A stretch of DNA of 51,681 nucleotides from a virus (IMGVR_UViG_3300047392_000113:119152-170832), one strand, 5' to 3'; positions 15,950 to 43,870 are shown, counted from the stretch's first letter. Made by a program: numbers and translations. The notes: generated from the sequence alone by a model not told the origin.

Positions 15950-16377
15950 AACAAAAGTGGGTTGATGCATTTATGGACACAGCGGAGCGATTTGCTCAGT
16001 TGTCCAGTGCCAAGAGGTTACAGGTCGGTGCGGTTGTCGTTAAGGATAACCGCATCATCTCAATCGGTTACAACGGAACACCAGCTGGTTGGGATAATAA
16101 TTGCGAGTATACTCCATATGATGACAACGGTGATCCTATGGACATTAAAACTAAACAAGAGGTCATTCATGCTGAAGCTAATGCGATCTCTAAGTTGGCA
16201 AGATCGAGCGAATCTGGTCTTGGCAGTGATATTTTTATTACTCACGCTCCTTGTGTGGATTGTGCCAAACTGATTTACGGTGCTGGTATAAATACGGTCT
16301 ACTACCGCAATTCTTACCGTGATACTAATGGGCTTGAATTTTTAGAAAAATGTGATATACAGGTGAATAAAGTATGA
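15946..16377 (+). CDS. cd: dCMP deaminase
   Basis: VGAVVV, GYNG, HAEANAI, PCVDC. Confidence 0.92.
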   Translation: MKQKWVDAFMDTAERFAQLSSAKRLQVGAVVVKDNRIISIGYNGTPAGWDNNCEYTPYDDNGDPMDIKTKQEVIHAEANAISKLARSSESGLGSDIFITHAPCVDCAKLIYGAGINTVYYRNSYRDTNGLEFLEKCDIQVNKV

Positions 16378-17249
16378 AGAAAATTATTGCTTTGATGATG
16401 TTGGTGTGTACAAATTTGTTTGCAGCGGAAACTATTAAAATCTATTCTCCATATAGCCCATCACACTCAGCGACTCCAGCTATGTTTAGAATCATTGATG
16501 AGGCAAACAAAGAACAGAGTATCTACAAGTTCATTCTCGAATTTCGTCCAGGTGGCAATCAGATTATTGCTCTTAAGTCTATGGACGAAAATAGTCTCGC
16601 AATCATTGCGCCAGCATTCGTGGAAAATGTAGCAGCAGGACAGATTAAAGAGTCTGACTATATTCCTGTTCATGCTCTTGGTGATGCATGCTGGGCTGTT
16701 ATCACAAATGGACCAATCAATGCTAACAAAGAGTTGACTGTTGGTGGTGTTGGGTTTGGTAATGCTGCACATCTAACTGCTCTTGCACTCGGAGAGAAAT
16801 ATAAGTTTGATGTCAAGTACATTGTGTTCAAGTCAAATAACGATGCGTTAGTTAATATGGCTGGCAACAACGGAATCTTTATGGTGATTGATCGTTATGA
16901 ATCTTACGAATCAATGAAGACAAAGAATACAAACTTGCAAGCATTCGCAGCTAGTTGTCCTGATAGACTACCGCAAGCACCCAATCTAAAGACTTTAAAA
17001 GAACTTGGAATTCAAGCACCATACGTCTTTAATATTACGATGGCTCATGTGTCTATGAGTACAGCAAGGCGTGAAAGTATCAAGCAAATTCTAAACAATG
17101 CTCAGAACAAAGTCGGTGCTGAAGAAATTTACAAAGTTTCTGGTATGAGGATTCCCAAAGAATCTGCTGAAGTGTTCTATAACAAATCAACTAAACTTGT
17201 AAAGACTCTACAAGAAAAGTACAGATCTGAGATTGAGAAATCAAAATGA
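16374..17249 (+). CDS. Bug/TctC-like periplasmic substrate-binding protein
   Basis: Signal peptide; RPGGNQIIA, GGVGFGNAAHL, LPQAPNLKTLKELG. Confidence 0.65.
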   Translation: MKKIIALMMLVCTNLFAAETIKIYSPYSPSHSATPAMFRIIDEANKEQSIYKFILEFRPGGNQIIALKSMDENSLAIIAPAFVENVAAGQIKESDYIPVHALGDACWAVITNGPINANKELTVGGVGFGNAAHLTALALGEKYKFDVKYIVFKSNNDALVNMAGNNGIFMVIDRYESYESMKTKNTNLQAFAASCPDRLPQAPNLKTLKELGIQAPYVFNITMAHVSMSTARRESIKQILNNAQNKVGAEEIYKVSGMRIPKESAEVFYNKSTKLVKTLQEKYRSEIEKSK

Positions 17250-17788
17250 TTAAACATGAGTGGTGGGCGACTCCAGTTTGGGAAGTTAAGACTGGATTTG
17301 ATACTAAATTTAACAATGAGTTGTTAAAAGAGATCGCATCAATCAAACCAACTGACGGATCATTCAACGTCTGGGATTATCGTCTACCAAGAATCATTGA
17401 ACTTGAGAGTTACATCTTAAAAACTGTCAACGATTCTATGGAAGAGTACCTACCCGAATATATGCAGAGAAAGTTATCTCTGTCAAGGGGATGGGTCAAC
17501 CGAAATCCTCCAGGAAATGCTCTTGCAGTACATAACCATGGTGGTGCTCTACTGGCTTGTACTTACTATCTTGTCACTCCTCCATATTGCGGAGATCTAC
17601 TATTGGTAGACCCACGTGGTGGTGCCAACTGGGGGTGGGAATATGAAGATGGAATCATTGGAGTGAAACATAAAAGAATCCGACCACTAGTTGGTAATCT
17701 TGTTTTCTTTCCAGCTTGCTTACTACACTCGGTCGAGGCTAATAAGTCTTATACTGCACGTGTAAGTCTTTCCACTAATGTCTATTGA
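17246..17788 (+). CDS. 2OG-Fe(II) oxygenase (TIGR02466-like)
   Basis: WVN...HNH, LLLVDPR, FFPACLLHSV...RVSLS. Confidence 0.85.
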   Translation: MIKHEWWATPVWEVKTGFDTKFNNELLKEIASIKPTDGSFNVWDYRLPRIIELESYILKTVNDSMEEYLPEYMQRKLSLSRGWVNRNPPGNALAVHNHGGALLACTYYLVTPPYCGDLLLVDPRGGANWGWEYEDGIIGVKHKRIRPLVGNLVFFPACLLHSVEANKSYTARVSLSTNVY

Positions 17789-21224: not shown

Positions 21225-21299
21225 GCGCCCTTAGTAAAATGAATATTACACAACGCTACGAACGTTGAAGTGGGAGTTTGATTCTCTCAGGGCGTACCA
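21225..21299 (+). tRNA. tRNA-Arg(ACG)
   Basis: Loop CT-ACG-AA, CCA. Confidence 0.88.
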
Positions 21300-21513: not shown

Positions 21514-21603
21514 GGAAGCGTGTCCGAGCGGTTTAAGGAACTAGTCTAGAAAACTAGCGAGTCAGCAATGGCTCCGTGAGTTCGAATCTCACCGCTTCCA
21601 CCA
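21514..21603 (+). tRNA. tRNA-Ser(AGA)
   Basis: CTAGT-CTAGAAA-ACTAG; long variable arm; A73; CCA. Confidence 0.85.
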
Positions 21604-32673: not shown

Positions 32674-32810
32674 CTAGGACGGGACGCATTGACTGGTGTG
32701 CGTAATCACCAGTCACTATAATGAAGCACATTGCTGAAGTTGGTTCAGTTAGACAGGGAGATCCAATTGCCCATGTCGTTAGTGTGTTTCATTATGGTAT
32801 AAATACATAT

Positions 32811-33545
32811 ATGAAAACATACAGTGTAGAAAAGTTCGACAATATAATAGATGAAGACCTCCAGTGGAGAGTCTGGGACTATATTCAAAACCAGACATTC
32901 CACGCAACTAGGAAAAATGTATCATATCCTAAAGTTGGATCTGTAATCTACTATAAACCTATCGATAATAAAAAAGAGTATCTTGACGACTCTGTTCCTT
33001 CTGTGAACAACCAGTATATGCACAGATGCGTGTTTGGTATGCGTGGTGAAGGGCATCCAGTCATATTAGAACTCTGGGAGCAGATCAATTCCCACTTTGG
33101 AAATAAATTTTTTATTGATGGGGATGTAGAAGGTATAGCTGACCCCAATCTAAAACCTAACTATTCTATGTGCTATGTGAATGCGCAACCAGAAGAAACG
33201 ATCAAACGTTCTCACGGTATTCATAGAGATACAATTGATCTTCAAGAAGAAACACACTATACGTTATTGTATATTGCCAATCCAACTTGGTATCCTACTT
33301 GGATGGGTGAGAATATCTTTTATTCTGATGATGAAACCACTGGTGACAAACAGCAATTTCAAAGAGGTTATGGTCAATCAAGAGGATTTGGTGTTGGAGA
33401 ACCATTTGAAATTATTTCTCCAAAACCTGGAAGAGTTATTCTTTATGATGGTAGAACATTACACACTACTAGACCAGTAGCACCATGGGCGGACAAGATG
33501 CGTTATGCTGTAGTGTTCAGAATACGAAAACGTAGAGATAAATAA
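32811..33545 (+). CDS. 2OG-Fe(II) oxygenase (prolyl-hydroxylase-like)
   Basis: HRD, TLLYIANPTW, GENIFY, PGRVILYDG..LH...R; TATAAATA 32798. Confidence 0.85.
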   Translation: MKTYSVEKFDNIIDEDLQWRVWDYIQNQTFHATRKNVSYPKVGSVIYYKPIDNKKEYLDDSVPSVNNQYMHRCVFGMRGEGHPVILELWEQINSHFGNKFFIDGDVEGIADPNLKPNYSMCYVNAQPEETIKRSHGIHRDTIDLQEETHYTLLYIANPTWYPTWMGENIFYSDDETTGDKQQFQRGYGQSRGFGVGEPFEIISPKPGRVILYDGRTLHTTRPVAPWADKMRYAVVFRIRKRRDK

Positions 33546-33551
33546 AAATAT

Positions 33552-33627
33552 GCGGGTATAGCTCAGTTGGTAGAGCACTTCCTTGCCAAGGAAGATGTCG
33601 AGAGTTCGAGTCTCTTTGCCCGCTCCA
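33552..33627 (+). tRNA. tRNA-Gly(GCC)
   Basis: Loop TT-GCC-AA, CCA. Confidence 0.95.
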
Positions 33628-33667
33628 AACATTATGGTACATAATAGTAAAATAAATAATGGCGATC

Positions 33668-33707
33668 AACACACGATTCATAAAACGGATCGTGTGTTTT
33701 CTTTTTT
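33668..33707 (+). terminator. Probable intrinsic terminator
   Basis: AACACACGAT/ATCGTGTGTT plus T-tract. Confidence 0.7.
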
Positions 33708-33722
33708 GTACAATCGAATGTG

Positions 33723-34229
33723 ATGTTCTTCCAAATATTAAACTTACCACCATTCCCAGAAAAGTATATCAAAGAAGCATACACTGCGAAATATACGCAG
33801 ATGTATAGTCCAGATCAACTGCGTGCATTCTCTTCATTTAACAATACAAAATTTGTTAAGATGATGCAAGATAAATTCGGTGTTCGTGGTGGGTTGTATA
33901 TGAAGAACACACCAATGTCTTATTACGACTGGCATACTGATATGGGGAGACAATGTTCGTTGAACTGGCTTCTTCAGAATAACTGTGGTAAAGCGTTCTA
34001 TAGAGAAAATATCAATTCATCAGCTGGTTCTAAATCCATAACATATAATCTAACGAAGATTGATTACACTTTATACAAACCAACTTTGCTTAATGTGACT
34101 AAAGAACACTGCGTTATAAATGATACTACAGAAGATAGAATCATATTCAGTATGAGTATTGATGTACCTTTCGAAGAAGTTCTCCAATATCTTTCTACTA
34201 CGGTAATTGATGATTATGAATCTTGCTAA
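33723..34229 (+). CDS. Hypothetical, 2OG-oxygenase/cupin-like protein
   Basis: YDWHTD, LLNVTKEHCVIN...DRIIFS. Confidence 0.6.
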   Translation: MFFQILNLPPFPEKYIKEAYTAKYTQMYSPDQLRAFSSFNNTKFVKMMQDKFGVRGGLYMKNTPMSYYDWHTDMGRQCSLNWLLQNNCGKAFYRENINSSAGSKSITYNLTKIDYTLYKPTLLNVTKEHCVINDTTEDRIIFSMSIDVPFEEVLQYLSTTVIDDYESC

Positions 34230-35655
34230 CGTTATCGACAAAAAACTAGCAAATAGTCTGTTTCTGATATGTGTTGATAAAGATGGCGTATCAAAGAAGT
34301 ATACCTACATAAATTTAGATGAACATTCTAGCTGGTTTGCTCGTTCTCTTTTAAAGAGAGGATTGGTGCAGGGTGATTCTATTGCTATCTTATCAAACAA
34401 CAGTTTCGAATATGCTGTCGCTTATTATGGTGCTCTTAAAGCTGGCATCGTTGCTGTGCTCGTCAATAACAAAATGAGCAGCACAGAGATTGAGTATGTG
34501 CTCACTGATAGTGGCTCTAAGATTCTATTTTCTGAAGATGAAAGACAATTCAGCATACCAACAATCAAGATGAATGAGTTAGAACTTTTCTACGATGTAG
34601 GAGAGTTCGATACTCTCCAGCTGGAAAGTTCAGCACATGCGGTCTGCATGTATACATCGGGTTCAACTGGTATTCCAAAGGGTGTTGTTTACTCTCATGG
34701 TCAGCATTATTGGTCTATTGATAGACACTCACAGGAAGAAAATCCTGTAGATAAATTCAGAAAAGTTAAGACTCTAATCATCACACCACTATATCATCTT
34801 AATGGATTGGCTGGTTTTGAGATTCAGATAAAGAAAGGTAACGTGATCGTTACATTGTCTAAGTTTGATTCTTCGATTGCTCTTAAAGCGATAGAAGAAC
34901 ATAAGGTTAATGTTATTGCAACTATCACAACCACGATGGCTCTGGTGGCTAACAATCCAGCTGTAGTTAATACAGATGTTAGTTCTGTTAAATCTATCCG
35001 CATCGGTAGTTCTATCACGACAGAATCCACAATCAATAAAATAAAGAAACATTTTCCACGTGCATCAATCTTAATCACATATGGAACTACTGAAACTGGT
35101 CCAGGGATGTTTGGGCAACACCCACAAAAGAAAAAATCTCCATTAACGAGTGTTGGGTATCCACTAAAGGGTATCGAGTATAGGATCGTTGATGGTGTTC
35201 TGCAGATTAAGACGCCATCCATTATGGCAGACTATAAAAATAAGAAAGAGTTATTCGACAGCAGATTCACCGAAGATGGTTTCTATATAACTGGTGACTT
35301 ATTTGAAGTAGATGCAGATGGATTCTACTACTGTTTGGGTAGATCAGACGAGATGTTTAAGTCTGGTGGTAATATCGTATACCCATCTGAGATAGAAAAC
35401 TTATTAGAGTCGCATCCACAAATATCGATGGCTGCTGTTATTGCAGTTGAAGATGAGTTGAAACAATTCCTACCTGTGGCATTCGTGGTTGCAGATGGAT
35501 TAACTGAACAAGATGTCAAGAACTATATACTATCTAAGACCGCTGCATATAAGCACCCACGTAAGGTTATCTTCCTTGAAACGATGCCTACTATCGGTAG
35601 TGGTAAAATTGATAAAGTGAAACTCAAACAACATTATAAGGAACATTATGTTTGA
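34216..35655 (+). CDS. Acyl-CoA synthetase / AMP-binding enzyme
   Basis: YTSGSTGIPKG, YGTTE, TGD, GRSDEMFKSGG, GSGKIDK. Confidence 0.92.
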   Translation: MNLANVIDKKLANSLFLICVDKDGVSKKYTYINLDEHSSWFARSLLKRGLVQGDSIAILSNNSFEYAVAYYGALKAGIVAVLVNNKMSSTEIEYVLTDSGSKILFSEDERQFSIPTIKMNELELFYDVGEFDTLQLESSAHAVCMYTSGSTGIPKGVVYSHGQHYWSIDRHSQEENPVDKFRKVKTLIITPLYHLNGLAGFEIQIKKGNVIVTLSKFDSSIALKAIEEHKVNVIATITTTMALVANNPAVVNTDVSSVKSIRIGSSITTESTINKIKKHFPRASILITYGTTETGPGMFGQHPQKKKSPLTSVGYPLKGIEYRIVDGVLQIKTPSIMADYKNKKELFDSRFTEDGFYITGDLFEVDADGFYYCLGRSDEMFKSGGNIVYPSEIENLLESHPQISMAAVIAVEDELKQFLPVAFVVADGLTEQDVKNYILSKTAAYKHPRKVIFLETMPTIGSGKIDKVKLKQHYKEHYV

Positions 35656-36394
35656 ACAGCTACATTCTTTAATTGGGCAGACAGTCGTTATTACTGGAGC
35701 GAATGGAGCAATCGCCAGAGCAGCAGCAAAACGTCTTCGTGGTCTTGGTGCCAATATAACTGGAATCGCAAGAACAGATAGCGAAGAAGTCAGAAAGTTT
35801 TATGCATCTGAAGAAGTCGAGGGTACACTGTTTATCGCAGATGTTACGGATACCGATTTAATACAACAAATTGTGTCTAAAATTACACAATGTGATATCT
35901 TGATCAACAACGCTGGTTGGACTAAAGCAGTACCACACCACGACCTAGCTGGTTTATCTGATGATGACATCGATAAAATGTTAAACGTGAATCTTAAATC
36001 AGTCTACACTACCACAAGAGCATTCCTACCTCTGCTACGCCAGAGCAACTACGGAACGATCATTAACATCTCCTCTGCTTCTGCCAATGGAGCAGGATAT
36101 GGTAGCAATGTTATGTATTCAGCAACCAAGTCTGCTATCAATTCACTAACAAAGGATTGGGCGAGAGCATTGGCACCGAAGGTTCGTGTTCTTTCTATTT
36201 CACCACCTCTTGTTATGGATTCTGACTTTTCTGGTTGGAGCAGAGATGATAAAATCAAACGTGGAATGAAACTACCTCTGAAGAGAGGATCCAACACAGA
36301 AGATATCGCCAACGCCATCGAAGCATATCTAACTAAAATCCGATTTGCCACTGGCGTTGATGTTATCGTCGATGGTGGGAGAAATTTACAATGA
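35648..36394 (+). CDS. Short-chain dehydrogenase/reductase
   Basis: TGANGAIA, NNAG, NISS, YSATK. Confidence 0.92.
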   Translation: MFEQLHSLIGQTVVITGANGAIARAAAKRLRGLGANITGIARTDSEEVRKFYASEEVEGTLFIADVTDTDLIQQIVSKITQCDILINNAGWTKAVPHHDLAGLSDDDIDKMLNVNLKSVYTTTRAFLPLLRQSNYGTIINISSASANGAGYGSNVMYSATKSAINSLTKDWARALAPKVRVLSISPPLVMDSDFSGWSRDDKIKRGMKLPLKRGSNTEDIANAIEAYLTKIRFATGVDVIVDGGRNLQ

Positions 36395-37287
36395 TTACCC
36401 GTAAACAAAAGACTGTTCTTACATGTGCTGTTACTGGTGGAGTTACCACCAAAGAGAACACACCATACTTACCCTGCACTCCAGAACAAATTGCAACTGC
36501 ATCTCTAGAAGCAGCCGAAGCTGGCGCTGCAGTAGTCCACATCCACGTTAGAGAGGATGATGGTAAGCCAAGCATTAGCTTAGACAAATATAGAGAAACT
36601 GTTGATCTTATTCGTAAACAGAACGATAAACTAATCATCAACCTAACTACTGGTCCAGGTGCTAAGTTTATTCCAGACAATACACGCTTAATTACTGGTC
36701 GTCCAGAATCGACTATGCTTCCAGCTGGTCGTCGTGTGAGCCATATTCTACAGGTCAAACCAGACATCTGCTCTATTGATTTTAACACGATGAATGAGAG
36801 TGATCAAAAACGTATTCGTATGAATATGCCGTATGTGGTCAAAGAGATGCTACGTCTGGTGCAATCTGTTGGCACTAAGCCAGAGTTAGAAATCTTTGGT
36901 TCTGGTGATTTCTTTCTTGCTAGAGAGATGGAGCGTGAGGGTGTATTCACTACTGGTAAACCATTGTGGCAATTTGCTACTGGTGTTAAGTATGGCATTA
37001 TGCCAACGCCAGAAGCTATTCACTACTACCACAGTATGCTACCCGACGATGCTCTGTGGTCTGCATTCGGTATCGGTAAGGAAGAGATGCCAATGGTTGC
37101 CACTACTTGGTTGTACGGTGGTCACGTTCGTGTTGGTATTGAAGACAATGTATATCTAGAGAAGGGTGTACTGGCAGAAACTAATGCACAGCTAGTTCAG
37201 AAAGCAGTCAGGATTGTAAAAGATCTTGGTGGTGAGATTGCTACATATGATGAAGCAAGAGAAATTTACGACTTACCCAAACGATGA
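36391..37287 (+). CDS. Beta-keto acid cleavage enzyme (BKACE/Kce family)
   Basis: TCAVTGG, PCTPEQIA, AGAAVVHIHVR, PELEIF, GHVRVGIEDN. Confidence 0.92.
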   Translation: MITRKQKTVLTCAVTGGVTTKENTPYLPCTPEQIATASLEAAEAGAAVVHIHVREDDGKPSISLDKYRETVDLIRKQNDKLIINLTTGPGAKFIPDNTRLITGRPESTMLPAGRRVSHILQVKPDICSIDFNTMNESDQKRIRMNMPYVVKEMLRLVQSVGTKPELEIFGSGDFFLAREMEREGVFTTGKPLWQFATGVKYGIMPTPEAIHYYHSMLPDDALWSAFGIGKEEMPMVATTWLYGGHVRVGIEDNVYLEKGVLAETNAQLVQKAVRIVKDLGGEIATYDEAREIYDLPKR

Positions 37288-37925
37288 ATCCTATTATAAA
37301 ATTAAATCTACCACCACTACCACCTGAGGTAGAATCCAGACTGTTGATTATGTCGGAGGATAGTGCCAATTTTAAGAACAGTAATAATACTTTGTTGGCC
37401 AAGAAAGAATCTGCTAAACGTAGAGGGATGACCAGAACAGTAGCAGAGATCGATGCAGTTCAGAAACTATATGGATTTGATTACATTCCTACACATAAGG
37501 CTATTCGTCTACAACCACAATTAACAGATGAATTGCGTAGTTATGTTCCTATTGAACTACCAGAAGCAATTGACTTTGTTGTGCAGGTTATTGATACTAA
37601 GAATACATTCATTCACGATGATGGTAGCCGTAAGGTATCATTCTACTATATGATGACAGAAGATCAGAATGCTATCACTAGATTCTACAAATCTGATTTA
37701 AATCCCATTCTGGAAACTACATATCACCCAGACGAAGTAGAAGAAGTTTACTCGATACATATGGATAAAGGATGTTGGTATATGTTTGACCATCAAAGTA
37801 TTCATGCTGTAACTAATGTGACAAAACGTAGAGTAGGTTTTTTGATAGACATGTCAAAGGTTTATACATATAGCCAGTGTTATGAAAAGTACAAGGATTT
37901 GATTGATGATAAAGATAATACCTGA
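37284..37925 (+). CDS. Hypothetical, 2OG-oxygenase/cupin-like protein
   Basis: IHDD, WYMFDHQSIHAV...R. Confidence 0.6.
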   Translation: MNPIIKLNLPPLPPEVESRLLIMSEDSANFKNSNNTLLAKKESAKRRGMTRTVAEIDAVQKLYGFDYIPTHKAIRLQPQLTDELRSYVPIELPEAIDFVVQVIDTKNTFIHDDGSRKVSFYYMMTEDQNAITRFYKSDLNPILETTYHPDEVEEVYSIHMDKGCWYMFDHQSIHAVTNVTKRRVGFLIDMSKVYTYSQCYEKYKDLIDDKDNT

Positions 37926-38367
37926 TTTTGTTTCTTCAGAAACGATTGATAGACTGATATCTTCTATTGATACTAGCAAAGCTACTGACTTCCCACACCA
38001 ACAAAACATTAAAACTGTTAACGGGATTGTCTATCCTCCAATACATAAAGAGGCAAAGAAATATGGTAACATTAGTAACATAGAGTTTTTAACTTATAAT
38101 GTCAACTCACTGATGTTCCCGCACATCGACAAGTATGGGTTCGATGGTGACTTCAAGTGGGTTCAGACTGGTATCTTGTTTATGAATGAACCATCCGAAT
38201 ATGAGGGTGGAGAGTTAGTGTTTAATAAAATGAAAACAGAGTTGAAGTGTCCGAAAGGGACATTCGTTTTATTCCCTGCTGGTGCTGACTCTGTTAACTA
38301 CACACACTCAGTAAAAGTTGTGACAAAGGGAATTAGACTTTCATTGGTCTTACGATATAAGGAATAA
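37903..38367 (+). CDS. 2OG-Fe(II) oxygenase
   Basis: HID, EYEGGEL, FP...H.V..V..G.RLSL. Confidence 0.88.
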   Translation: MMIKIIPDFVSSETIDRLISSIDTSKATDFPHQQNIKTVNGIVYPPIHKEAKKYGNISNIEFLTYNVNSLMFPHIDKYGFDGDFKWVQTGILFMNEPSEYEGGELVFNKMKTELKCPKGTFVLFPAGADSVNYTHSVKVVTKGIRLSLVLRYKE

Positions 38368-38368
38368 T

Positions 38369-39049
38369 ATGGAAAAGAAAATCACGTATCTAGAACACAA
38401 CGAAGAAGTTGTGGATGAAGTGCACAATCTGTGGCACACACCTATCATTACTGCCAAACCATTTGACGATGAATTCTTGGATAAGTTATGCGAAGACGTT
38501 AAGTATCTTCTAAAACCTGGAGCACCTGGAACTTTGAACCAGACCAATGTCTGGGAATTACCAGACCTACCTGATACTATGATTGCTGTCAAGGACAAGA
38601 TGGTTGAGTTGACAGACAAGTATTATCGCCCACTAACTGAGATGCCATTACCACCACTGTACGGTAGTAAGGGATACTTCCGTGAAGTAAAACAAAACTC
38701 GATCTATCGAATCTCTCCACACAAGCATGCACAAACGCTTGGTGTTGGTATCATCTATATCGATGTACCAAAACGTAATGCTGGTAACCTAATGCTAATG
38801 GATCCACGTGGTGGTGTTCTTTGGCACAACCAGTTCACACCATTCAAACGTGTCGCTGTTGAGCGTGGTCTGATGGTTGTACATCCAGGTTATGTAACTC
38901 ACTTTGTTGAACCTACTGACTACAACTGTTCTCGTTACGATTATCGCCTTGCCATTATCTCTAACATTCATTGGAAGCATGCTGACTTTATCAAGGAGTT
39001 GGCTAAGAATGAAGAGTTACTCTACAATATGGGAAGTATCGAGTTATGA
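38369..39049 (+). CDS. 2OG-Fe(II) oxygenase (TIGR02466-like)
   Basis: HKH, LMLMDPRGG, HPGYVTHFV, RLAII. Confidence 0.8.
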   Translation: MEKKITYLEHNEEVVDEVHNLWHTPIITAKPFDDEFLDKLCEDVKYLLKPGAPGTLNQTNVWELPDLPDTMIAVKDKMVELTDKYYRPLTEMPLPPLYGSKGYFREVKQNSIYRISPHKHAQTLGVGIIYIDVPKRNAGNLMLMDPRGGVLWHNQFTPFKRVAVERGLMVVHPGYVTHFVEPTDYNCSRYDYRLAIISNIHWKHADFIKELAKNEELLYNMGSIEL

Positions 39050-40497
39050 TGTTTTTTGATCAATATAAAGAGTTTGTTGATTCTGATATTAGAAAGGATA
39101 GACCATTAACCAGAGTCACCTCTGAATCATTAAGTAAAAGATGTCAAGCTCTTCTACCTTCTTGGTTGATCAAGGATAAAACTGTTCTTGATCTTGGTCA
39201 TTGCTATGGTGCATTTGGTCAGTGGTGTTTGGCAAACGGAGCTAAACATTATACTGGCGTAGACATCCAAAAATTATTTTGTGATAAGTCTAAAGAACTT
39301 CTATCAAAATACTGGAGTGACGAACAATTTAGCATTGAACAAGAAGATGTACTGGCATTCTTACAAAAAACACCAAGCCAGAAATATGATATTATTGTAG
39401 TATCTGGTGTTATGCACTGTTATTCTAATCCTATATCTTTTGTTGAGAGTGTATGTAACTCTGCCAATGAGGTTGTTATTATAGAAACATTAGAAGCTGA
39501 TGAATCTAATGGTGTTCCATCTATTCAGTTTAAAATTTTTAATATGGTCTCTGATGATATCAATTCACCATATCAAGGATGGACAGCTTTAGTTGGATAT
39601 AATGCACTTCGTTCAATAATGGAAGAGAATAACTTCGAGATATATGGACAAAGAATATTCCCCGAGAAGATTGAAAATAGTCATGATGCATATAATGATG
39701 ATATTACCGCTGTCAGTCCTCTCAAAAGCAAACCGAACCGTTATATGGTTCGTTACAAAAGAACCAGAAGAAAAATTAAAAAATCTTTACAATATAACAT
39801 TTTGAATAATGTTCATAGTAGAAATACTGCTTATGTTGGTATGTCTCACTCTAAAATTATTAAGGGTGAAACTTGGAAGTTTGATGATAATGTTGCTTCT
39901 AGATTCCAAGAGGAAGCTAACTCTAATATCCCAGATTATCATCGAGTTATTGAAATGTGTCAACAGATAGCCGATAGTAAGTTTGGTAAACATTCAGTTA
40001 TTGTTGATGTTGGGTCTGCATTAGGTTATACTGTAGAGTCATTCCTAACTAAAGGATACGATAATGTATACGGAGTAGAATCCAGTGAAGCGATGATGAG
40101 TAACTCATTGCATAGAGATCGTATCATTTTCAGTGAATCGTTTCCTATTATGCCAGTTGATTTTGTAATGGCTAACTGGACTCTACACTTTGTGAATGAG
40201 AGAAAGAAATACATACAAGATGTATATGATAATCTTAACTCTGGTGGCGTGTTTGTTTTAACAGATAAAACACCCCAATCAGATATTATAAAAGAGATGT
40301 ACTATGACTTCAAGAGATCTCATGGAGTCACAGATGAATACATATACGAAAAAGAAAAGAAGCTGCAGGGATATATGAATTTGTTACCTGTGCAGTGGTA
40401 TCTAGATACATTGAAAGAAGTTGGGTTTAGTGACATCCAGATAGTCAATAGTAAGTATGGGTTTGTAACCTTTTATTGTGAGAAGAATTATGCCTGA
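39046..40497 (+). CDS. Tandem SAM-methyltransferase fusion; C-terminal domain CmoA-like
   Basis: N: VLDLGHCYG; C: WKFDDNVA.RF...IPDY, DVGSALG, NWTLHFV, LNSGGVFVLTDK. Confidence 0.82.
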   Translation: MMFFDQYKEFVDSDIRKDRPLTRVTSESLSKRCQALLPSWLIKDKTVLDLGHCYGAFGQWCLANGAKHYTGVDIQKLFCDKSKELLSKYWSDEQFSIEQEDVLAFLQKTPSQKYDIIVVSGVMHCYSNPISFVESVCNSANEVVIIETLEADESNGVPSIQFKIFNMVSDDINSPYQGWTALVGYNALRSIMEENNFEIYGQRIFPEKIENSHDAYNDDITAVSPLKSKPNRYMVRYKRTRRKIKKSLQYNILNNVHSRNTAYVGMSHSKIIKGETWKFDDNVASRFQEEANSNIPDYHRVIEMCQQIADSKFGKHSVIVDVGSALGYTVESFLTKGYDNVYGVESSEAMMSNSLHRDRIIFSESFPIMPVDFVMANWTLHFVNERKKYIQDVYDNLNSGGVFVLTDKTPQSDIIKEMYYDFKRSHGVTDEYIYEKEKKLQGYMNLLPVQWYLDTLKEVGFSDIQIVNSKYGFVTFYCEKNYA

Positions 40498-41080
40498 TTA
40501 TTCAGAAATCAAAGATAACCATCGTGATAGAGTTTATGTTATCGAAACACCAGAAGAACTAGATTCTCATATGAAATCTGGTCGTAAATGGGTTAGTAAC
40601 TATTTCTTAATCGACAAGCCAAAGATTGTTCATTTTGCAGAAGCAACTGGTGACACGCAGTGGATTCATACTGCCGATGAATCAGAGGTAAAAAATAGAC
40701 TTAGCCTAATCTCCCATGGGTTTGGTGAAGATCCATTTGATAGAACTATTGCTCATGGATACTATTCATTGGCTATGTTTGGTTCACTACTCGGAAAGGC
40801 AGTGAATCTTCGTTTCACCAAACTTGTTATCAACTACGGATTAGACTATGTGCGCTTCACTAATCCAGTACCAGTCGACTCAAAAGTGCGTGCGGTTGTT
40901 GGTGTCAAAAAGTGGGAGTGGATAGCAGATGAGAATGATCCAACAAAAAACAATGGTGTAAAGATTTGGTGGGATCAAGTACTGCAGATCCAAGGTAAAC
41001 AGAAACCAGCTTGTTACGCTACTGCAGTTATTTTATACTACTTCGACAAAGACTATGCTCCACAAAAACCATCTGAATGA
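40490..41080 (+). CDS. MaoC-like (hot-dog) dehydratase
   Basis: FAEATGDTQWIH, TIAHG, NYGLDYVRF.NPV. Confidence 0.88.
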   Translation: MPDYSEIKDNHRDRVYVIETPEELDSHMKSGRKWVSNYFLIDKPKIVHFAEATGDTQWIHTADESEVKNRLSLISHGFGEDPFDRTIAHGYYSLAMFGSLLGKAVNLRFTKLVINYGLDYVRFTNPVPVDSKVRAVVGVKKWEWIADENDPTKNNGVKIWWDQVLQIQGKQKPACYATAVILYYFDKDYAPQKPSE

Positions 41081-41309
41081 CGCAAAGAAATACTCTCGCT
41101 TGTCAGAGAGTAAATGGTTCTATTTTCTACACATGTGGTGGGCACTGAAGTTCTCTGCCACACTACTCTTCTGGTCAGTCGCTATGTTTATCCATGCTAT
41201 CTTTCCACAGCTGGTAGGATTCACTGTTCTAGAAAACTTGGTAGCATTCCTTAAGAATATGAAAGAAAGTCATCCAGATGACCCCATCCTCAAAGACCTC
41301 AACCTATGA
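41055..41309 (+). CDS. Small membrane protein
   Basis: YFLHM..A...HAIFP motif. Confidence 0.65.
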   Translation: MLHKNHLNDAKKYSRLSESKWFYFLHMWWALKFSATLLFWSVAMFIHAIFPQLVGFTVLENLVAFLKNMKESHPDDPILKDLNL

Positions 41310-42051
41310 AATAATTAGGGTTGGGTTGCCAATCACTAGAGAAGCAATCACTCAAGAGTTTCTCGATATCGTAGATGAATTAGAACGTAATGATGACTGG
41401 GTTGGATTAACTCTTTGTGACTACGATACATCTGGTACAAAAACTAGACTAGATCAACACAACGCTCCAGCAGGATATGAAGTTCTATTGGAGCGAGGTT
41501 TTGTATTCCAACAGAAAGAACTAACCAGAGCGAATAAGATTATTGGCACATTTGGTTATCTCTGGCTTGGTCGTGATCCAATACAAACTACCATTAAGAT
41601 GCTGCAGATCCTTAAGAATGTGCATGCTGTAGAACAATTCAAGACAGTAGTAACATTCACACCTGGAAGTCCACACTACGATGATGCTGTGACTAAAATC
41701 TTATCTTCTGCGTTTGACGATATGAGAATAGTCGATACTGCATCCTCTGCTCAGATAGCTGCGAGTGCTATTGGTCGTGACTGCGAGATTCGTGCATACT
41801 ATGATGACTTTGTTCTTGGTAAAAATAAATCAATAGACAAGTCAAAGGTTTTGATATTCTCTTGCTTACAACATGGGTATAATGTTGATATGCAAAAGGT
41901 GGTCACTGACTTACAACCCAAAGAAATCATTGCAGTTAATATTAAACTTGACCGAGTAGAGAAAACGGTGTATACTTATGAGGAAGTGCTAAACAATATC
42001 GATATGTTGTTTAAATCAGAACAAACTTACATCTTTGGATTTGCTTGGTAA
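41278..42051 (+). CDS. Hypothetical protein
   Basis: Long ORF continuing the operon. Confidence 0.65.
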   Translation: MTPSSKTSTYEIIRVGLPITREAITQEFLDIVDELERNDDWVGLTLCDYDTSGTKTRLDQHNAPAGYEVLLERGFVFQQKELTRANKIIGTFGYLWLGRDPIQTTIKMLQILKNVHAVEQFKTVVTFTPGSPHYDDAVTKILSSAFDDMRIVDTASSAQIAASAIGRDCEIRAYYDDFVLGKNKSIDKSKVLIFSCLQHGYNVDMQKVVTDLQPKEIIAVNIKLDRVEKTVYTYEEVLNNIDMLFKSEQTYIFGFAW

Positions 42052-42479
42052 TGTATTATTTTATAACTCTTAAGTGGAAAGGTGGCTTTACTCATATAGT
42101 CCCATGTAGGAACTATAATCTTAAATCGCAATTACGATTCGCAGAATCACTTGATTACGTTGAGCATATATCGTATAAAGAAGTGACTGAAGAAAAGTAC
42201 AATGAATATTACGCTGATGAAAAGGAGAACTCTAATGGACCAAGAAAGCAAAGAAAAACACAGCAAGAGAATCCACCAAAAGGAAAGCTACGTAAAGAAG
42301 CAAGTAAAGATAGCAAAGCAAGTGTTGGGGCTAAACGAAAAGCAACCACATCGGTTCGCAAAGCACAGCCCAGCAAACTGCGGGAATCCAAAGTGCCTGA
42401 TGTGCGCAAACCCAAGAAAGACGTTAAAGGAACTAACGGTTCAGGAACAAAGACAACTACAAGACGTAGAAGCAAATAG
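42051..42479 (+). CDS. Hypothetical protein with a basic tail overlapping the next gene
   Basis: ORF coupled to the upstream stop. Confidence 0.5.
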   Translation: MYYFITLKWKGGFTHIVPCRNYNLKSQLRFAESLDYVEHISYKEVTEEKYNEYYADEKENSNGPRKQRKTQQENPPKGKLRKEASKDSKASVGAKRKATTSVRKAQPSKLRESKVPDVRKPKKDVKGTNGSGTKTTTRRRSK

Positions 42480-42549
42480 AGACAAACATAGTAATGGTTT
42501 AAAGGTAACCGATGAAACTAGCATCACTGACACAGTACGCCAAACATAA
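42235..42549 (+). CDS. Hypothetical Cys/His protein
   Basis: AAGGAG RBS; HRFAKH..ANCGNPKCLMCANPRK. Confidence 0.65.
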   Translation: MDQESKEKHSKRIHQKESYVKKQVKIAKQVLGLNEKQPHRFAKHSPANCGNPKCLMCANPRKTLKELTVQEQRQLQDVEANRDKHSNGLKVTDETSITDTVRQT

Positions 42550-43015
42550 AGATGGCACATACGTATCCCTAGAAATGAGCGAGGAGTCTAGAAAACTTCT
42601 CGATCACTACGTGGAAATGAATCTTGGATTGACAGAGCGAGTTGATCCATCTACATATCATATCACTGTAATCTATTCTCGAACACCTGTTCCATCAGCT
42701 GAGAATTACTTACACATGAACACTTCTCTGCCAGTCGAAGCAATGGTTACTGGTTATGAAGTATTCCCCACAAACCACGATGGAAAATGTTTGGTAATGC
42801 GAGTTGTTTGCCCATATGCAACTAGATTAAATTCTCAGCTAACGCAAGAAGGCGCAACCAGCGACTATTCTGATTACAAATCCCATATCACTATTGCTTA
42901 CAATATCCAGCAAGAAGTCGATCCGCATACGCTACCAGTACCGCAATTTCAATTAGTGTTTGATAAACTAAAAGTAGAACCACTCGACCCAGTCTTTACG
43001 CCCCAAAATAAGTGA
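42512..43015 (+). CDS. 2H phosphoesterase, Acb1/T4 57B-like
   Basis: Two HxT motifs: YHITVIYSR and SHITIAY. Confidence 0.8.
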   Translation: MKLASLTQYAKHKDGTYVSLEMSEESRKLLDHYVEMNLGLTERVDPSTYHITVIYSRTPVPSAENYLHMNTSLPVEAMVTGYEVFPTNHDGKCLVMRVVCPYATRLNSQLTQEGATSDYSDYKSHITIAYNIQQEVDPHTLPVPQFQLVFDKLKVEPLDPVFTPQNK

Positions 43016-43052
43016 TTGTCTTGCAAGATTCTTTAGTGTATAATATACCTAA
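43016..43052 (+). promoter_or_regulatory. sigma70 promoter
   Basis: TTGTCT-N17-TATAAT. Confidence 0.7.
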
Positions 43053-43063
43053 AGGAGCTTGAG

Positions 43064-43246
43064 ATGAAATGTTGTAATGATAACTGCAGGCAGGGTCGTG
43101 ATTGCCCACATCGCACATCCATACTGGACAATCCAAAGTTCATTATGATATGTGCGATTTTCATTGCACCATTTTTGATATTGTGGACACTGGTTCGTCA
43201 TCCGATACTTTGTTATCGAATCTGGAAGAATAAAGATATTTTATGA
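43064..43246 (+). CDS. Small membrane protein with an N-terminal Cys motif
   Basis: AAGGAG RBS; CCNDNCRQGRDCP. Confidence 0.65.
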   Translation: MKCCNDNCRQGRDCPHRTSILDNPKFIMICAIFIAPFLILWTLVRHPILCYRIWKNKDIL

Positions 43247-43713
43247 ATTACTTGTACGTGTTAGTTGGAGTGCCAGCATCTGGTAAGTCCACTTGGATTA
43301 AGAACCAAGTCTGGGCTAAAGATATCCCAGTTGTATCCACCGATAGATTTGTCGAAGAATATGCTAAAGAGCAAGGTAAAACTTACTCTGAAGTATTCCA
43401 AGAGTATATGCCCATCGCTGTTAAATTGATGGCGAACCAAGCATTGATCTGTCAGGCTAACAAGAAAGATATTATCTGGGATCAAACCAGTACTACTATT
43501 GCAACTCGTGCGAAAAAGATTCGTATGTTGCCAGAGTACTACAAGATTGCAGTTGTTATGAAGACTCCACCAACAGCTGTGTTAGAACAGCGTCTTGCTT
43601 CTCGTCCAGGAAAAAACATTCCATGGGAAGTTGTATCAAATATGGCTCAACAATTAGAAGCAGAGCCACCAACATTAGAAGAGGGATTCAATGAAATCTG
43701 GTACGCTCAATGA
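43243..43713 (+). CDS. P-loop kinase (polynucleotide-kinase-like, AAA_33)
   Basis: GVPASGKST, VSTD, WDQT, R...R. Confidence 0.85.
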   Translation: MNYLYVLVGVPASGKSTWIKNQVWAKDIPVVSTDRFVEEYAKEQGKTYSEVFQEYMPIAVKLMANQALICQANKKDIIWDQTSTTIATRAKKIRMLPEYYKIAVVMKTPPTAVLEQRLASRPGKNIPWEVVSNMAQQLEAEPPTLEEGFNEIWYAQ

Positions 43714-43870
43714 AGTATGTATAATGTGTGGTAAACCTGCTGACTGGATTCGTTCTACTCAGTTTGCTGGTGACCACCCATTCTGTGAACAACATGCCAA
43801 AAAAGAAGATGATTTTGGTGTCAATGACTCTTATGAGTATTGGTACAACATAGAAGATAAGGAGAAGTAA
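43691..43870 (+). CDS. Small zinc-finger protein, not in ORF track
   Basis: CIMCGKPA...HPFCEQHA. Confidence 0.6.
   Translation: MKSGTLNEVCIMCGKPADWIRSTQFAGDHPFCEQHAKKEDDFGVNDSYEYWYNIEDKEK

Follow-up and report, generated by a model that had tools for sequence, protein, structure and literature searches.

Two Independently Traveling Gene Cassettes, a Putative Acid/CoA Module and a tRNA-associated CmoA-like Methyltransferase Module, in a Phage Genome

The DNA investigated here, referred to as the window, is a stretch of 51,681 nucleotides (119152-170832) from the IMG/VR entry IMGVR_UViG_3300047392_000113 (G000), a complete phage genome of 170,832 bp that has direct terminal repeats. The window carries a ribonucleotide reductase, an exonuclease, a Ro60-like gene, and 33 tRNA genes (ARAGORN), as well as a block of enzyme genes between positions 32798 and 42479, of which 32798-42051 had been read in an earlier note, made from the sequence alone, as one near-complete metabolic pathway. 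The block is two independently traveling cassettes side by side and not a single pathway. Cassette A has as its core a putative coenzyme A (CoA) ligase, a short-chain dehydrogenase/reductase (SDR), and a β-keto acid cleavage enzyme (BKACE), together called the trio, and is accompanied here by a MaoC-like dehydratase. Cassette B contains the 2-oxoglutarate (2OG) oxygenases w02 and w09, a fused double methyltransferase whose C-domain is a homolog of CmoA, a DUF6356 protein, and w13; in other phages its fusion gene lies within tRNA arrays. We propose that cassette A would handle organic acids as CoA thioesters, that cassette B would install a modification of the uridine 5-oxyacetic acid (cmo5U) type on tRNA, and that the two were spliced into one operon in this phage. 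This explanation, taken as a whole, has in our judgment an even chance of being correct.

Results

Modular Distribution of the Block

Gene content was called with Pfam, NCBIfam, and PHROGs profile searches, and gene neighborhoods were read from both ends, starting from the BKACE in 36 IMG/VR loci and from the double methyltransferase in 60 IMG/VR loci. The whole survey covered ~100 related phage loci and 80 bacterial loci (L118-L197). Neighborhood counts are approximate because of the simple open reading frame (ORF) caller and the presence of near-duplicate loci (L020/L045, L037/L040, L066/L068, L070/L071). Around the BKACE, the SDR was located directly upstream in 30 of the 36 loci and the ligase upstream of the SDR in 26, with a fixed spacing. 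The assortment of the genes, which the earlier note had proposed to survey, is therefore not random, this order being kept in 26-30 of the 36 viral loci. The double methyltransferase was found in only three BKACE loci, which are the closest kin of the window, and MaoC in only three as well; apart from these, L007 and L008 carry two MaoC copies. Read from the other end, the trio was present in only 3 of the 60 double-methyltransferase loci. The commonest neighbor there was a PF13759 oxygenase of the w09 family (18 of 60; representative 3.5e-20), followed by DUF6356 (14), a PF04308 protein (13), w02 (10), and TctC (9). The earlier idea of one near-complete pathway could not be upheld, since methyltransferase and oxygenases occur in complete phage genomes without any BKACE. 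Three complete genomes, G001 (terminally repeated, 161,882 bp), G004, and G010, have the methyltransferase but no BKACE at any position, and the same holds for the 98%-complete G009.

The best 120 database relatives of the BKACE (57-96% identity) were phage-borne wherever examined, and on one 348-kb contig the trio lies beside a terminase. The double-methyltransferase family comprises ~276 members, each of them a fusion, and the contigs that carry them reach 354 kb. The earlier note had called a near-complete pathway unusual in a phage; in its support, a tblastn search of 50,697 GenBank phage records with the BKACE gave no match. Ligase matches in these records were mostly to host-like contigs. 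In a megablast search of the block against GenBank phages, the tRNA-Gly was the sole match.

The features of the block are listed below in window coordinates.

32798-32805, plus strand: TATAAATA motif, 5 nt upstream of the w02 ATG
32811-33545, plus strand: w02, 2OG/Fe(II) oxygenase of 244 residues, virus-only family, cassette B (PF13640, 22 bits; intact HxD...H...R)
33552-33627, plus strand: tRNA-Gly(GCC), called by ARAGORN, 6 nt past the end of w02
33668-33698, plus strand: terminator-like hairpin, 12-bp stem and T-run, closing the w02 and tRNA-Gly unit; top-scoring such site within 30500-43800
33720-34229, plus strand: w03, 169 residues, no family, first gene of the overlapping operon (HxD...H pattern by eye only)
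34207-35655, plus strand: ANL acyl-adenylate/putative CoA ligase, cassette A (PF00501, E 1.7e-55; PF13193, 2.7e-15)
35648-36394, plus strand: classical SDR, cassette A (PF00106, E 8.5e-37)
36391-37287, plus strand: BKACE/DUF849 zinc TIM-barrel enzyme, BsfD-like subtype, cassette A (PF05853, E 2.6e-87)
37284-37925, plus strand: w07, virus-only protein of 213 residues, possible 2OG oxygenase, lineage-variable (Atlas 0.90, a lead only)
37903-38367, plus strand: w08, small 2OG-Fe(II) oxygenase, lineage-variable (PF13640, 30.5 bits, above cutoff; phrog_61, 3.3e-16)
38369-39049, plus strand: w09, oxygenase of the 2OG-FeII_Oxy_5 type, cassette B (PF13759, 23.9 bits, 5.6e-5; phrog_81, 1e-11)
39046-40497, plus strand: fused double methyltransferase, 483 residues, cassette B (N-domain ~1-240 weakly CmoB-like; C-domain ~271-483 CmoA homolog)
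40478-41080, plus strand: MaoC-like hot-dog (R)-hydratase/dehydratase, between methyltransferase and DUF6356 (PF01575, E 2.2e-13)
41055-41309, plus strand: DUF6356 small hydrophobic protein, cassette B (PF19883, 9e-8)
41278-42051, plus strand: w13, 257 residues, no family, travels with cassette B (conserved after DUF6356)
42045-42479, plus strand: w14, ORF of 144 residues whose low-complexity tail is very basic, final gene of the overlapping run, not conserved

In L019 and L020 the gene order is w02-x-w09-double methyltransferase-w03-DUF6356-w13. The order in the window is w02-tRNA-w03-[ligase-SDR-BKACE]-w07-w08-w09-double methyltransferase-[MaoC]-DUF6356-w13, and compared with L019/L020 the trio and MaoC therefore look inserted. 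Insertion of the trio and MaoC into a pre-existing cassette would be the simplest account of the two orders.

The description of the sequence in the earlier note was confirmed, with caveats on motif, hairpin, and GC content. Ligase, SDR, BKACE, MaoC, and double methyltransferase were all recovered in place by the profile searches and look intact, and the catalytic motifs of ligase, SDR, BKACE, MaoC, and w02 are intact. Translational coupling was found as described, with intergenic gaps of -32 to +1 nt throughout 33720-42479. Three of the "up to five" 2OG oxygenases are supported by profiles (w02, w08, and w09); w07 gives a weak lead and w03 a motif only. The DNA is AT-richer as reported, but modestly so, with 38.1% GC compared with 40.3% in the genome, which is the 4.7th percentile of 9.2-kb windows. 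The TATAAATA motif is indeed present at the start of the block, but it is not enriched: four copies were counted in the window against 2.7 expected, and the whole 170-kb genome has eight on the plus strand and one on the minus strand. Its role as a significant late-promoter signal was rejected for this reason and because the terminator-like hairpin lies between the motif and the operon. As the hairpin at 33668-33698 separates w02 and tRNA-Gly from the remaining genes, TATAAATA cannot be taken as the promoter of the block.

The Fused Methyltransferase of Cassette B

By alignment and by model, the C-domain of the fusion is a CmoA homolog. It aligned to E. coli CmoA with an hhalign probability of 99.6 (E 3.8e-24) over CmoA residues 12-240 of 247, including the N-terminal W-x-F-D...IPDY lid. 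The AlphaFold model of the fusion has a predicted local distance difference test score of 86.7, and its best structural match was 4gek (VIA Z 25.1, root mean square deviation 2.4 Å, 209 residues), in a VIA comparison that was run on the whole fusion model and whose list was filled by C-domain matches. The CmoA contact residues Tyr39, Asp62, Gly64, Asn132, Phe137, and Glu164 (Asp here) are conserved in 24 of 24 sequences, and Lys198 is also kept.

The N-domain is a class I methyltransferase with its own intact motif I and with invariant Arg16, Arg19, Arg32, Arg232, and Arg236. The CmoB model TIGR00452 was touched by 18 of the 24 N-domains, weakly (1e-5), and CmoB is the named family with the most such matches. 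The S-carboxymethyl group is bound in CmoB by Lys91, Tyr200, and Arg315 (PMC4482062). Of these, the Tyr200 column is occupied by His or Tyr in the phage N-domains, whereas Lys91 and Arg315 lie outside the weakly aligned core; the five invariant Arg residues could possibly take their place.

Several results weigh against an assignment to Cmo-type chemistry. CmoA Arg199, put forward as the hallmark residue of the family, which forms a salt bridge to the carboxymethyl group (PMC3663124), is absent; its column holds Glu, Lys, or Gln in the family (Glu in the window), next to an invariant Lys. The scores remained far below the cutoffs of the CmoA and CmoB models (TIGR00740, 63.7 bits compared with 193.3; TIGR00452, 27.5 bits compared with 275). 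For the N-domain, the hhalign probability to CmoB was 84% and covered the Rossmann core only (CmoB residues 121-269), and protein arginine methyltransferase and ToxA-type enzymes scored as well in the PDB. As to Arg199, the CmoA of Synechococcus phage S-B43 (SpCmoA) is a biochemically proven, highly active carboxy-S-adenosylmethionine (Cx-SAM) synthase (PMC12783734). In SpCmoA, which is 100% identical to the aligned S-B05 copy, the Arg199 column is likewise occupied by Glu, as part of the (D/E)KEK(E/K)L sequence that the fusion also has. Since this proven enzyme also lacks Arg199, the missing residue does not exclude Cx-SAM synthesis, and the C-domain of the fusion may make Cx-SAM.

The two methyltransferase halves were called as separate ORFs in several loci (79 ORFs in 60 loci). 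In the distant clades represented by L013, L014, L047-L050, and L054, an α/β-hydrolase follows the fusion, and some of these loci have a class IV aminotransferase. In L012, a 71.7-kb ENA contig, the double methyltransferase is convergent with a BKACE without ligase or SDR; TauD and Asp/Arg-hydroxylase oxygenases and 7-deazaguanine genes (QueC-like, PTPS, and radical SAM) lie in its vicinity.

Association of Cassette B with tRNA Genes

The oxygenase w02 starts at ATG 32811 and not at 32721. Only 6 nt separate its end from tRNA-Gly(GCC), and the hairpin at 33668-33698 follows the two genes; w02 and the tRNA-Gly thus seem to be a small transcription unit of their own, preceded by TATAAATA. The residues H138-R-D140...H218...R231 of w02 are invariant in 24 relatives. 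Its family has 162 members, all unnamed, and the nearest Atlas clusters are 100% viral. The predicted structure has a P4H/PHD-like, prolyl-hydroxylase-like fold (template modeling (TM) score ~0.5). In distant relatives w02 is 63-69% identical and is located directly or one gene before the double methyltransferase. The second cassette B oxygenase, w09, sits directly upstream of the double methyltransferase in the window.

The fusion gene itself also lies close to tRNA genes. In L032, L042, and L033, a distance of 8-15 nt separates a tRNA-Gly of the GCC type from the double methyltransferase. Of the 60 fusion loci, 12, which represent about ten distinct phages, have their nearest tRNA on the same strand and no more than 60 bp away (8-60 bp), whereas no such proximity was seen in 33 BKACE-only control loci from comparable phages (Fisher p = 0.003). 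In L027, L032, L042, L053, and L071, the fusion gene lies between two same-strand tRNAs, each at a distance of 8-36 bp. The tRNA density in the flanks was 4.2 per 10 kb for the fusion loci compared with 1.5 for the controls, and complete fusion-carrying phages had 26, 24, 22, and 9 tRNAs.

Six tRNA types of E. coli carry cmo5U, among them Ala-UGC, Pro-UGG, Val-UAC, Thr-UGU, and Leu-UAG. These five of the six are encoded in the window. In the Ala, Pro, and Val boxes, the U34 tRNA is the sole phage tRNA for the box. A cmo5U-type wobble modification by a single-chain CmoB-like/CmoA-like enzyme is the function we favor for the fusion, with somewhat better than even chances. The obvious candidate for the preceding hydroxylation would then be w02, for which a protein or a small molecule is a possible acceptor as well. 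The suggestion of the earlier note that tRNA might be a target was right as to the tRNA link, which runs through the CmoB/CmoA-like fusion in tRNA arrays, but not as to an acyl group from the CoA enzymes. Two points count against a tRNA function. In one jumbo phage genome that carries the fusion and is 89% complete, no tRNA was detected. Furthermore, tRNA arrays are hyperplastic regions in which unrelated genes also gather, and some of the 60 loci are near-duplicates.

An alternative is that the fusion (carboxy)methylates a small molecule or a protein hydroxylated by the 2OG oxygenases, comparable to TglE/TglF or MccS. That CmoA homologs can be partnered with transferases acting on targets other than tRNA is established (PMC10491745, PMC12783734). 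In addition, the fold of w02 most resembles protein prolyl hydroxylases, and the PDB sequence matches of the N-domain are small-molecule and protein methyltransferases. Moreover, the fusion has an α/β-hydrolase, a class IV aminotransferase, or TctC as neighbors in some clades. We nevertheless consider this alternative unlikely, given the short distance of the fusion to same-strand tRNAs, which was seen in about ten different phages but not in any of the 33 controls, the apparent co-transcription of w02 with tRNA-Gly, and CmoB being the most consistently matched named family.

Among the other tRNAs of the window, three have A34, namely Ser(AGA) at 21514-21603, Thr(AGU) at 25528-25603, and Arg(ACG) at 21225-21299. 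Of these, the A-to-I deaminase TadA of bacteria normally acts on Arg-ACG only, so that the other two may be used by the phage with A34 left unmodified or deaminated in an unusual way.

Cassette A

The ligase scored above cutoff with PF00501 (188.9 bits) and PF13193 (57.5 bits). Its translation contains YTSGSTGIPKG, YGTTE, TGD, and a C-terminal GK, corresponding to the A3, A5, A7, A8, and A10 lysine set. The SDR has the motifs TGANGAIA, NNAG, SSAS, and YSATK and an Arg after β2 (GIARTD), and looks NADP-type. In MaoC (PF01575, 50.3 bits compared with a cutoff of 27), the GD...IH dyad was read by eye in ATGDTQWIH.

The BKACE matched PF05853 with 293 bits (cutoff 24.8) over profile positions 1-274 of 274, and the subgroup assignment suggested in the earlier note placed it with BsfD, with Phe replacing the canonical Tyr. 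All NCBIfam BKACE equivalogs were below cutoff (232 bits compared with 382 for Kce, 191 compared with 430, and 174 compared with 350), and the enzyme can therefore not be filed under lysine or carnitine catabolism. These two routes, given as examples in the earlier note, were rejected on the equivalog scores, because the SDR is not of the 3-hydroxyacyl-CoA dehydrogenase type used for carnitine, and because no partner genes are found within the block.

The best PDB match of the BKACE was BsfD (9ZSC, E 7e-80, 287 residues). The zinc ligands H50, H52, and E251 correspond to BsfD H48, H50, and E247; none of the three varies among 121 sequences of the phage clade. Phe169, in the BsfD Phe166 column, is invariant in the same 121 sequences, and the canonical Tyr (Kce Tyr145, PdKce Tyr173) is absent. 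An insertion of ~20 residues after β3 is present. In the BsfD Arg91 column the window has K92, and the column varies between Y, R, K, L, F, and V across the 121 sequences, which suggests different substrates in different phages. BsfD C-acetylates a β-keto acid with subsequent decarboxylation to a 1,3-diketone, in place of the canonical retro-Claisen cleavage; it has Phe166 where cleaving BKACEs carry Tyr, and Arg91 on its ~20-residue insertion contacts the phosphonate (bioRxiv 10.64898/2026.01.15.699783).

The neighbors that the trio has most often in phages are a solute-binding protein and an Asn-synthetase-like protein. Of 38 trio loci, 15 have a DctP solute-binding protein of the tripartite ATP-independent periplasmic (TRAP) transporter type, which directly follows the BKACE in ~9, and 17 have a virus-only protein of ~418 residues whose predicted fold is Asn-synthetase-like. 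In L004-L006 and L009, the trio module is flanked by TctC binding proteins. The window genome encodes both a DctP (C1:46111-47058; PF03480, 5.8e-43) and, at window positions 16374-17249, a TctC-like protein (PF03401, 3e-7). A weak tblastn likeness (27% over 108 residues) to the virus-only Asn-synthase-like family was detected at C1:47304-47606 of the genome. Outside the window, C1:44300-48220 (L117 802-4722) contains a radical-SAM gene, an ORF of 110 residues, DctP, and a weakly Asn-synthase-like protein of 367 residues; elsewhere, DctP and the Asn-synthase-like family come right behind the trio. Within the window, 16287-17788 has a TATAAATA motif at 16287 followed by the TctC-like protein and a PF13759 2OG oxygenase (17246-17788, 3.4e-15).

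The nearest cellular BKACEs (50-57% identity, >580 matches) are from Variovorax, Limnohabitans, Polynucleobacter, Paraburkholderia, and Rhizobiales. An SDR homolog was found in 60 of the 80 bacterial loci, directly upstream of the BKACE where positions were readable, and an ANL ligase in only four. The typical cellular operon is intradiol dioxygenase-SDR-BKACE-quinone-reductase-like medium-chain dehydrogenase/reductase-TctC or cupin, and its members also score below the NCBIfam equivalog cutoffs. This operon probably encodes an undescribed ring-cleavage route that ends in a BKACE step. The conservation of SDR-BKACE in these operons indicates that the two are an old functional pair from small-molecule metabolism. 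Their substrates there are probably ring-cleavage products, and the ligase is a phage addition. The Burkholderiales operon is the likely source of the phage pair, and this suggests a Burkholderiales host. The view of the earlier note, which had put a modifying acyl group or a small molecule before energy metabolism, was not supported: the TRAP-protein neighbors and the cellular dioxygenase-SDR-BKACE operons point to small-molecule acid metabolism. Cassette A would thus process a free organic acid via CoA thioesters and is probably coupled to uptake, in a direction that would be catabolic or, as with BsfD, biosynthetic. A role in the mobilization of polyhydroxyalkanoates or 3-hydroxyalkanoates was rejected. 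It fits SDR, ligase, and MaoC, but nothing is specific for it, and the variable BKACE specificity residue speaks against one universal substrate.

Scavenging by cassette A is challenged by two points. Solute-binding-protein homologs of phages may serve roles other than transport. In addition, the phage BKACE shares its Phe with the diketone-building BsfD and the SDR looks NADP-type, so that the cassette could be biosynthetic. In this case the BKACE would C-acylate a β-keto acid, giving a 1,3-diketone or a chain extension, and the NADPH-type SDR would reduce it; the product would be a specialized metabolite such as an antimetabolite, a signal, or an acyl donor, in place of a catabolic intermediate. 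The closest solved relative being BsfD, with the invariant Phe169 and the ~20-residue insertion, argues for such a route, as do the Arg of the SDR after β2, the variation in the Arg91 column, which suggests diversified substrates, and the near absence of the ligase from bacterial operons, which makes it a phage-specific addition. However, even in BsfD itself no role of Phe as opposed to Tyr is proven (bioRxiv 10.64898/2026.01.15.699783). Moreover, the same branch includes RaKce and the Burkholderiales homologs of dioxygenase operons, and the solute-binding-protein neighbors fit uptake. A biosynthetic cassette A is, like a non-tRNA target of cassette B, an unlikely alternative.

Accompanying Genes

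The remaining genes of the block are less well defined. For w03, no Pfam, PHROG, or NCBIfam match was obtained, and both an hhalign comparison with w02 and a PDB search were empty. Relationship of w03 and w07 to w02 was rejected (hhalign probability <1%). Relatives of w03 (31-56% identity) adjoin the double methyltransferase in L019, L020, L026, and L044. No family was matched by w07 in the profile searches, and its Atlas lead was 0.90 to PF13640/PF05118 clusters. It is not present in L002, and relatives adjoin DUF6356 in L047, L049, L050, and L054. Among the surveyed relatives, w08 was found in L003 only. The profile searches gave no family for w13 either, and its best Atlas score of 0.81 was not significant; homologs (42-80% identity) come after DUF6356 in L002, L003, L009, L019, L020, L044, and others. 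The C-terminal 90 residues of w14 are extremely rich in Lys, Arg, Ser, and Thr, and a single relative was found, in L026.

Directly downstream of the block (window 42512-43713) lie a homolog of the Acb1 phosphodiesterase (PF23474, 3.9e-23), which acts against the cyclic-oligonucleotide-based anti-phage signaling system (CBASS), and an AAA_33 kinase. The position of Acb1 is kept in L002, L003, L009, L019, and others (66-73% identity).

Discussion

The proposed mechanism can be outlined as follows. Cassettes A and B would move independently among large freshwater phages. In cassette A, joined by MaoC in the window, a small organic acid would be handled as CoA thioesters. The SDR would interconvert the β-hydroxy and the β-keto acid, and the zinc BKACE would combine the β-keto acid with an acyl-CoA in one of two ways: canonical cleavage, which yields acetoacetate and a shortened acyl-CoA, or BsfD-like C-acylation and decarboxylation. 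The ligase would activate a free acid, which may be the substrate or acetoacetate, and MaoC would then hydrate or dehydrate the resulting 3-hydroxyacyl/enoyl-CoA. The acid would probably be taken up via the phage-encoded solute-binding proteins, and the cassette would act as an auxiliary scavenging module, not as the maker of a macromolecule-modifying group. Cassette B (w02, w09, the fusion, DUF6356, and w13) would act on tRNA. Its C-domain would make Cx-SAM, and the N-domain would move the carboxymethyl group onto a hydroxylated wobble uridine to give a cmo5U-type base, with the 5-hydroxyl possibly provided by one of the 2OG oxygenases. The five phage family-box U34 tRNAs could then read whole codon boxes.

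A bolder version of this scheme is conceivable, although we place it on the unlikely side. Cassette B might be a self-contained, oxygen-dependent route to a cmo5U-type base in which w02 and/or w09 is a new tRNA U34 C5-hydroxylase that replaces TrhO/TrhP and a single chain both makes and uses Cx-SAM. Whole-box decoding or resistance to anticodon-targeting defenses would thereby become independent of the host, and the adjoining CoA cassette might derivatize the base or supply a co-substrate.

The separation of the block into two cassettes has to be weighed against their persistent neighborhood in this lineage. The trio is adjacent to w02 and the double methyltransferase through four gene orders (window/L002/L003; L004-6; L007-8; L009), and the ligase has diverged to 36-46% identity across these arrangements. 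Such adjacency could mean a functional link between the cassettes in this lineage. One integrated pathway has accordingly been considered, in which a tRNA base, DNA, or a protein would receive a carboxymethyl-type handle from the oxygenases and the Cx-SAM fusion, and the CoA enzymes would extend or remodel the handle or supply an unusual acyl group to be attached to it. The overlap of all genes from 33720 to 42479 in one operon would fit such a pathway, as would the four arrangements, whose members have 60-96% BKACE identity, and the Asn-synthetase-like protein that is frequent behind the trio elsewhere. The known CmoA-CmoX-CmoY system likewise uses a carboxyl handle and, after it, an ATP-dependent ligase (PMC12783734). 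Against this stand the complete phage genomes with cassette B and without BKACE, and the 33 of 36 BKACE loci without the methyltransferase. In addition, the closest cellular SDR-BKACE pairs are found in small-molecule operons, and BKACE enzymes are known only on free β-keto acids. An integrated pathway is thus distinctly improbable. Least probable of all is that the fusion is an ordinary two-step SAM methyltransferase without Cx-SAM chemistry, similar to plant phosphoethanolamine N-methyltransferase (PEAMT): motif I in both domains, the lost Arg199, the CmoA/CmoB scores below cutoff, and two-domain PEAMT enzymes as top whole-chain Foldseek matches would agree with it, but these matches have TM scores of 0.28-0.32 with a single domain superposed and were discounted, the alignment of the C-domain with CmoA runs from end to end, lid included (99.6%), and the proven SpCmoA also lacks Arg199.

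The preferred explanation, a mosaic of two cassettes, has several implications. Auxiliary genes of phages are usually read singly, and here a neighborhood survey splits a seeming pathway into two recurrent portable cassettes. Cassette A represents a BKACE acid/CoA operon that is widespread in uncultured large phages, with none in ~50,000 GenBank phage records. The dioxygenase-SDR-BKACE operon of Burkholderiales is a tractable cellular model for the substrate of the trio. If the proposed role of cassette B is true, phages carry maturation chemistry for their own tRNAs besides the tRNAs themselves, and wobble-uridine modification would be relevant to the purpose of tRNA genes in phages and to the evasion of anticodon nucleases. 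The cassette could also reveal a new class of RNA hydroxylase. Finally, the absence of Arg199 from SpCmoA changes which sequences count as candidate Cx-SAM synthases.

Literature searches for DUF849 or BKACE in phages gave nothing relevant, and no paper on the methyltransferase fusion was found. Neither cassette was thus found described in a paper; their parts belong to known superfamilies, and each cassette resembles known systems. For cassette A, the canonical BKACE routes (Kce, 2Y7D-G; dehydrocarnitine cleavage; 3-oxoadipate:acetyl-CoA acetyltransferase; and deoxyribonate catabolism, bioRxiv 10.1101/205583) likewise have a dehydrogenase followed by a BKACE acting on a β-hydroxy/β-keto acid with acetyl-CoA, and transporter-binding proteins nearby. 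They differ in that the phage enzyme is below the equivalog cutoffs and has Phe for Tyr, and in that neither Kdd/Kal nor carnitine dehydrogenase is present in the block. BsfD of flavophos biosynthesis in Burkholderia (9ZSC/9ZSH/9ZSN/9ZSV) and RaKce (3C6C) share the His-His-Glu zinc site and the Phe in place of the canonical Tyr. With BsfD, the phage BKACE further shares the ~20-residue β3 insertion and a basic residue, Lys92, at the Arg91 column. In contrast to the BsfD system, the phage BKACE is accompanied by an ANL ligase and an SDR and has no genes of phosphonate metabolism (Ppm, PsfC, or lumazine synthase) in its vicinity, the Arg91 column is variable across the phage clade, and the chemistry of the phage BKACE is predicted from sequence.

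For cassette B, TglE/TglF (3-thiaglutamate) and MccS (microcin C) (PMC10491745) also combine a homolog of Cx-SAM synthase with a dedicated transferase for a non-canonical acceptor. They are, however, separate proteins in bacterial natural-product clusters, and their precursor peptide and adenylyltransferase are not present in the phage block. The CmoA-CmoX-CmoY system for DNA 5-carboxymethylcytosine of Synechococcus phage S-B43 (PMC12783734) has a phage CmoA homolog with the same (D/E)KEK(E/K)L sequence and Glu at the Arg199 column. The partner in the window is a fused methyltransferase of non-DNA type, and the C-domain is 26% identical to SpCmoA. Pfam searches of the complete 170,832-bp genome gave no match for CmoX (PF00145, C5-cytosine methyltransferase) or CmoY (PF00733, Asn-synthase), and the published DNA system was therefore rejected for this phage. 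Compared with the CmoA/CmoB pathway to cmo5U34 (4GEK, 4QNU; PMC3663124, PMC4482062), the phage has both kinds of domain fused in one chain, B-like before A-like, has Glu for Arg199, lacks the ~100-residue N-terminal extension of CmoB, and associates with 2OG oxygenases in place of TrhO/TrhP. In common with that pathway are the full-length CmoA-like C-domain, the N-domain that leans toward CmoB, the linkage of the fusion to tRNA genes, and the tRNA species of the E. coli cmo5U type that the phage encodes.

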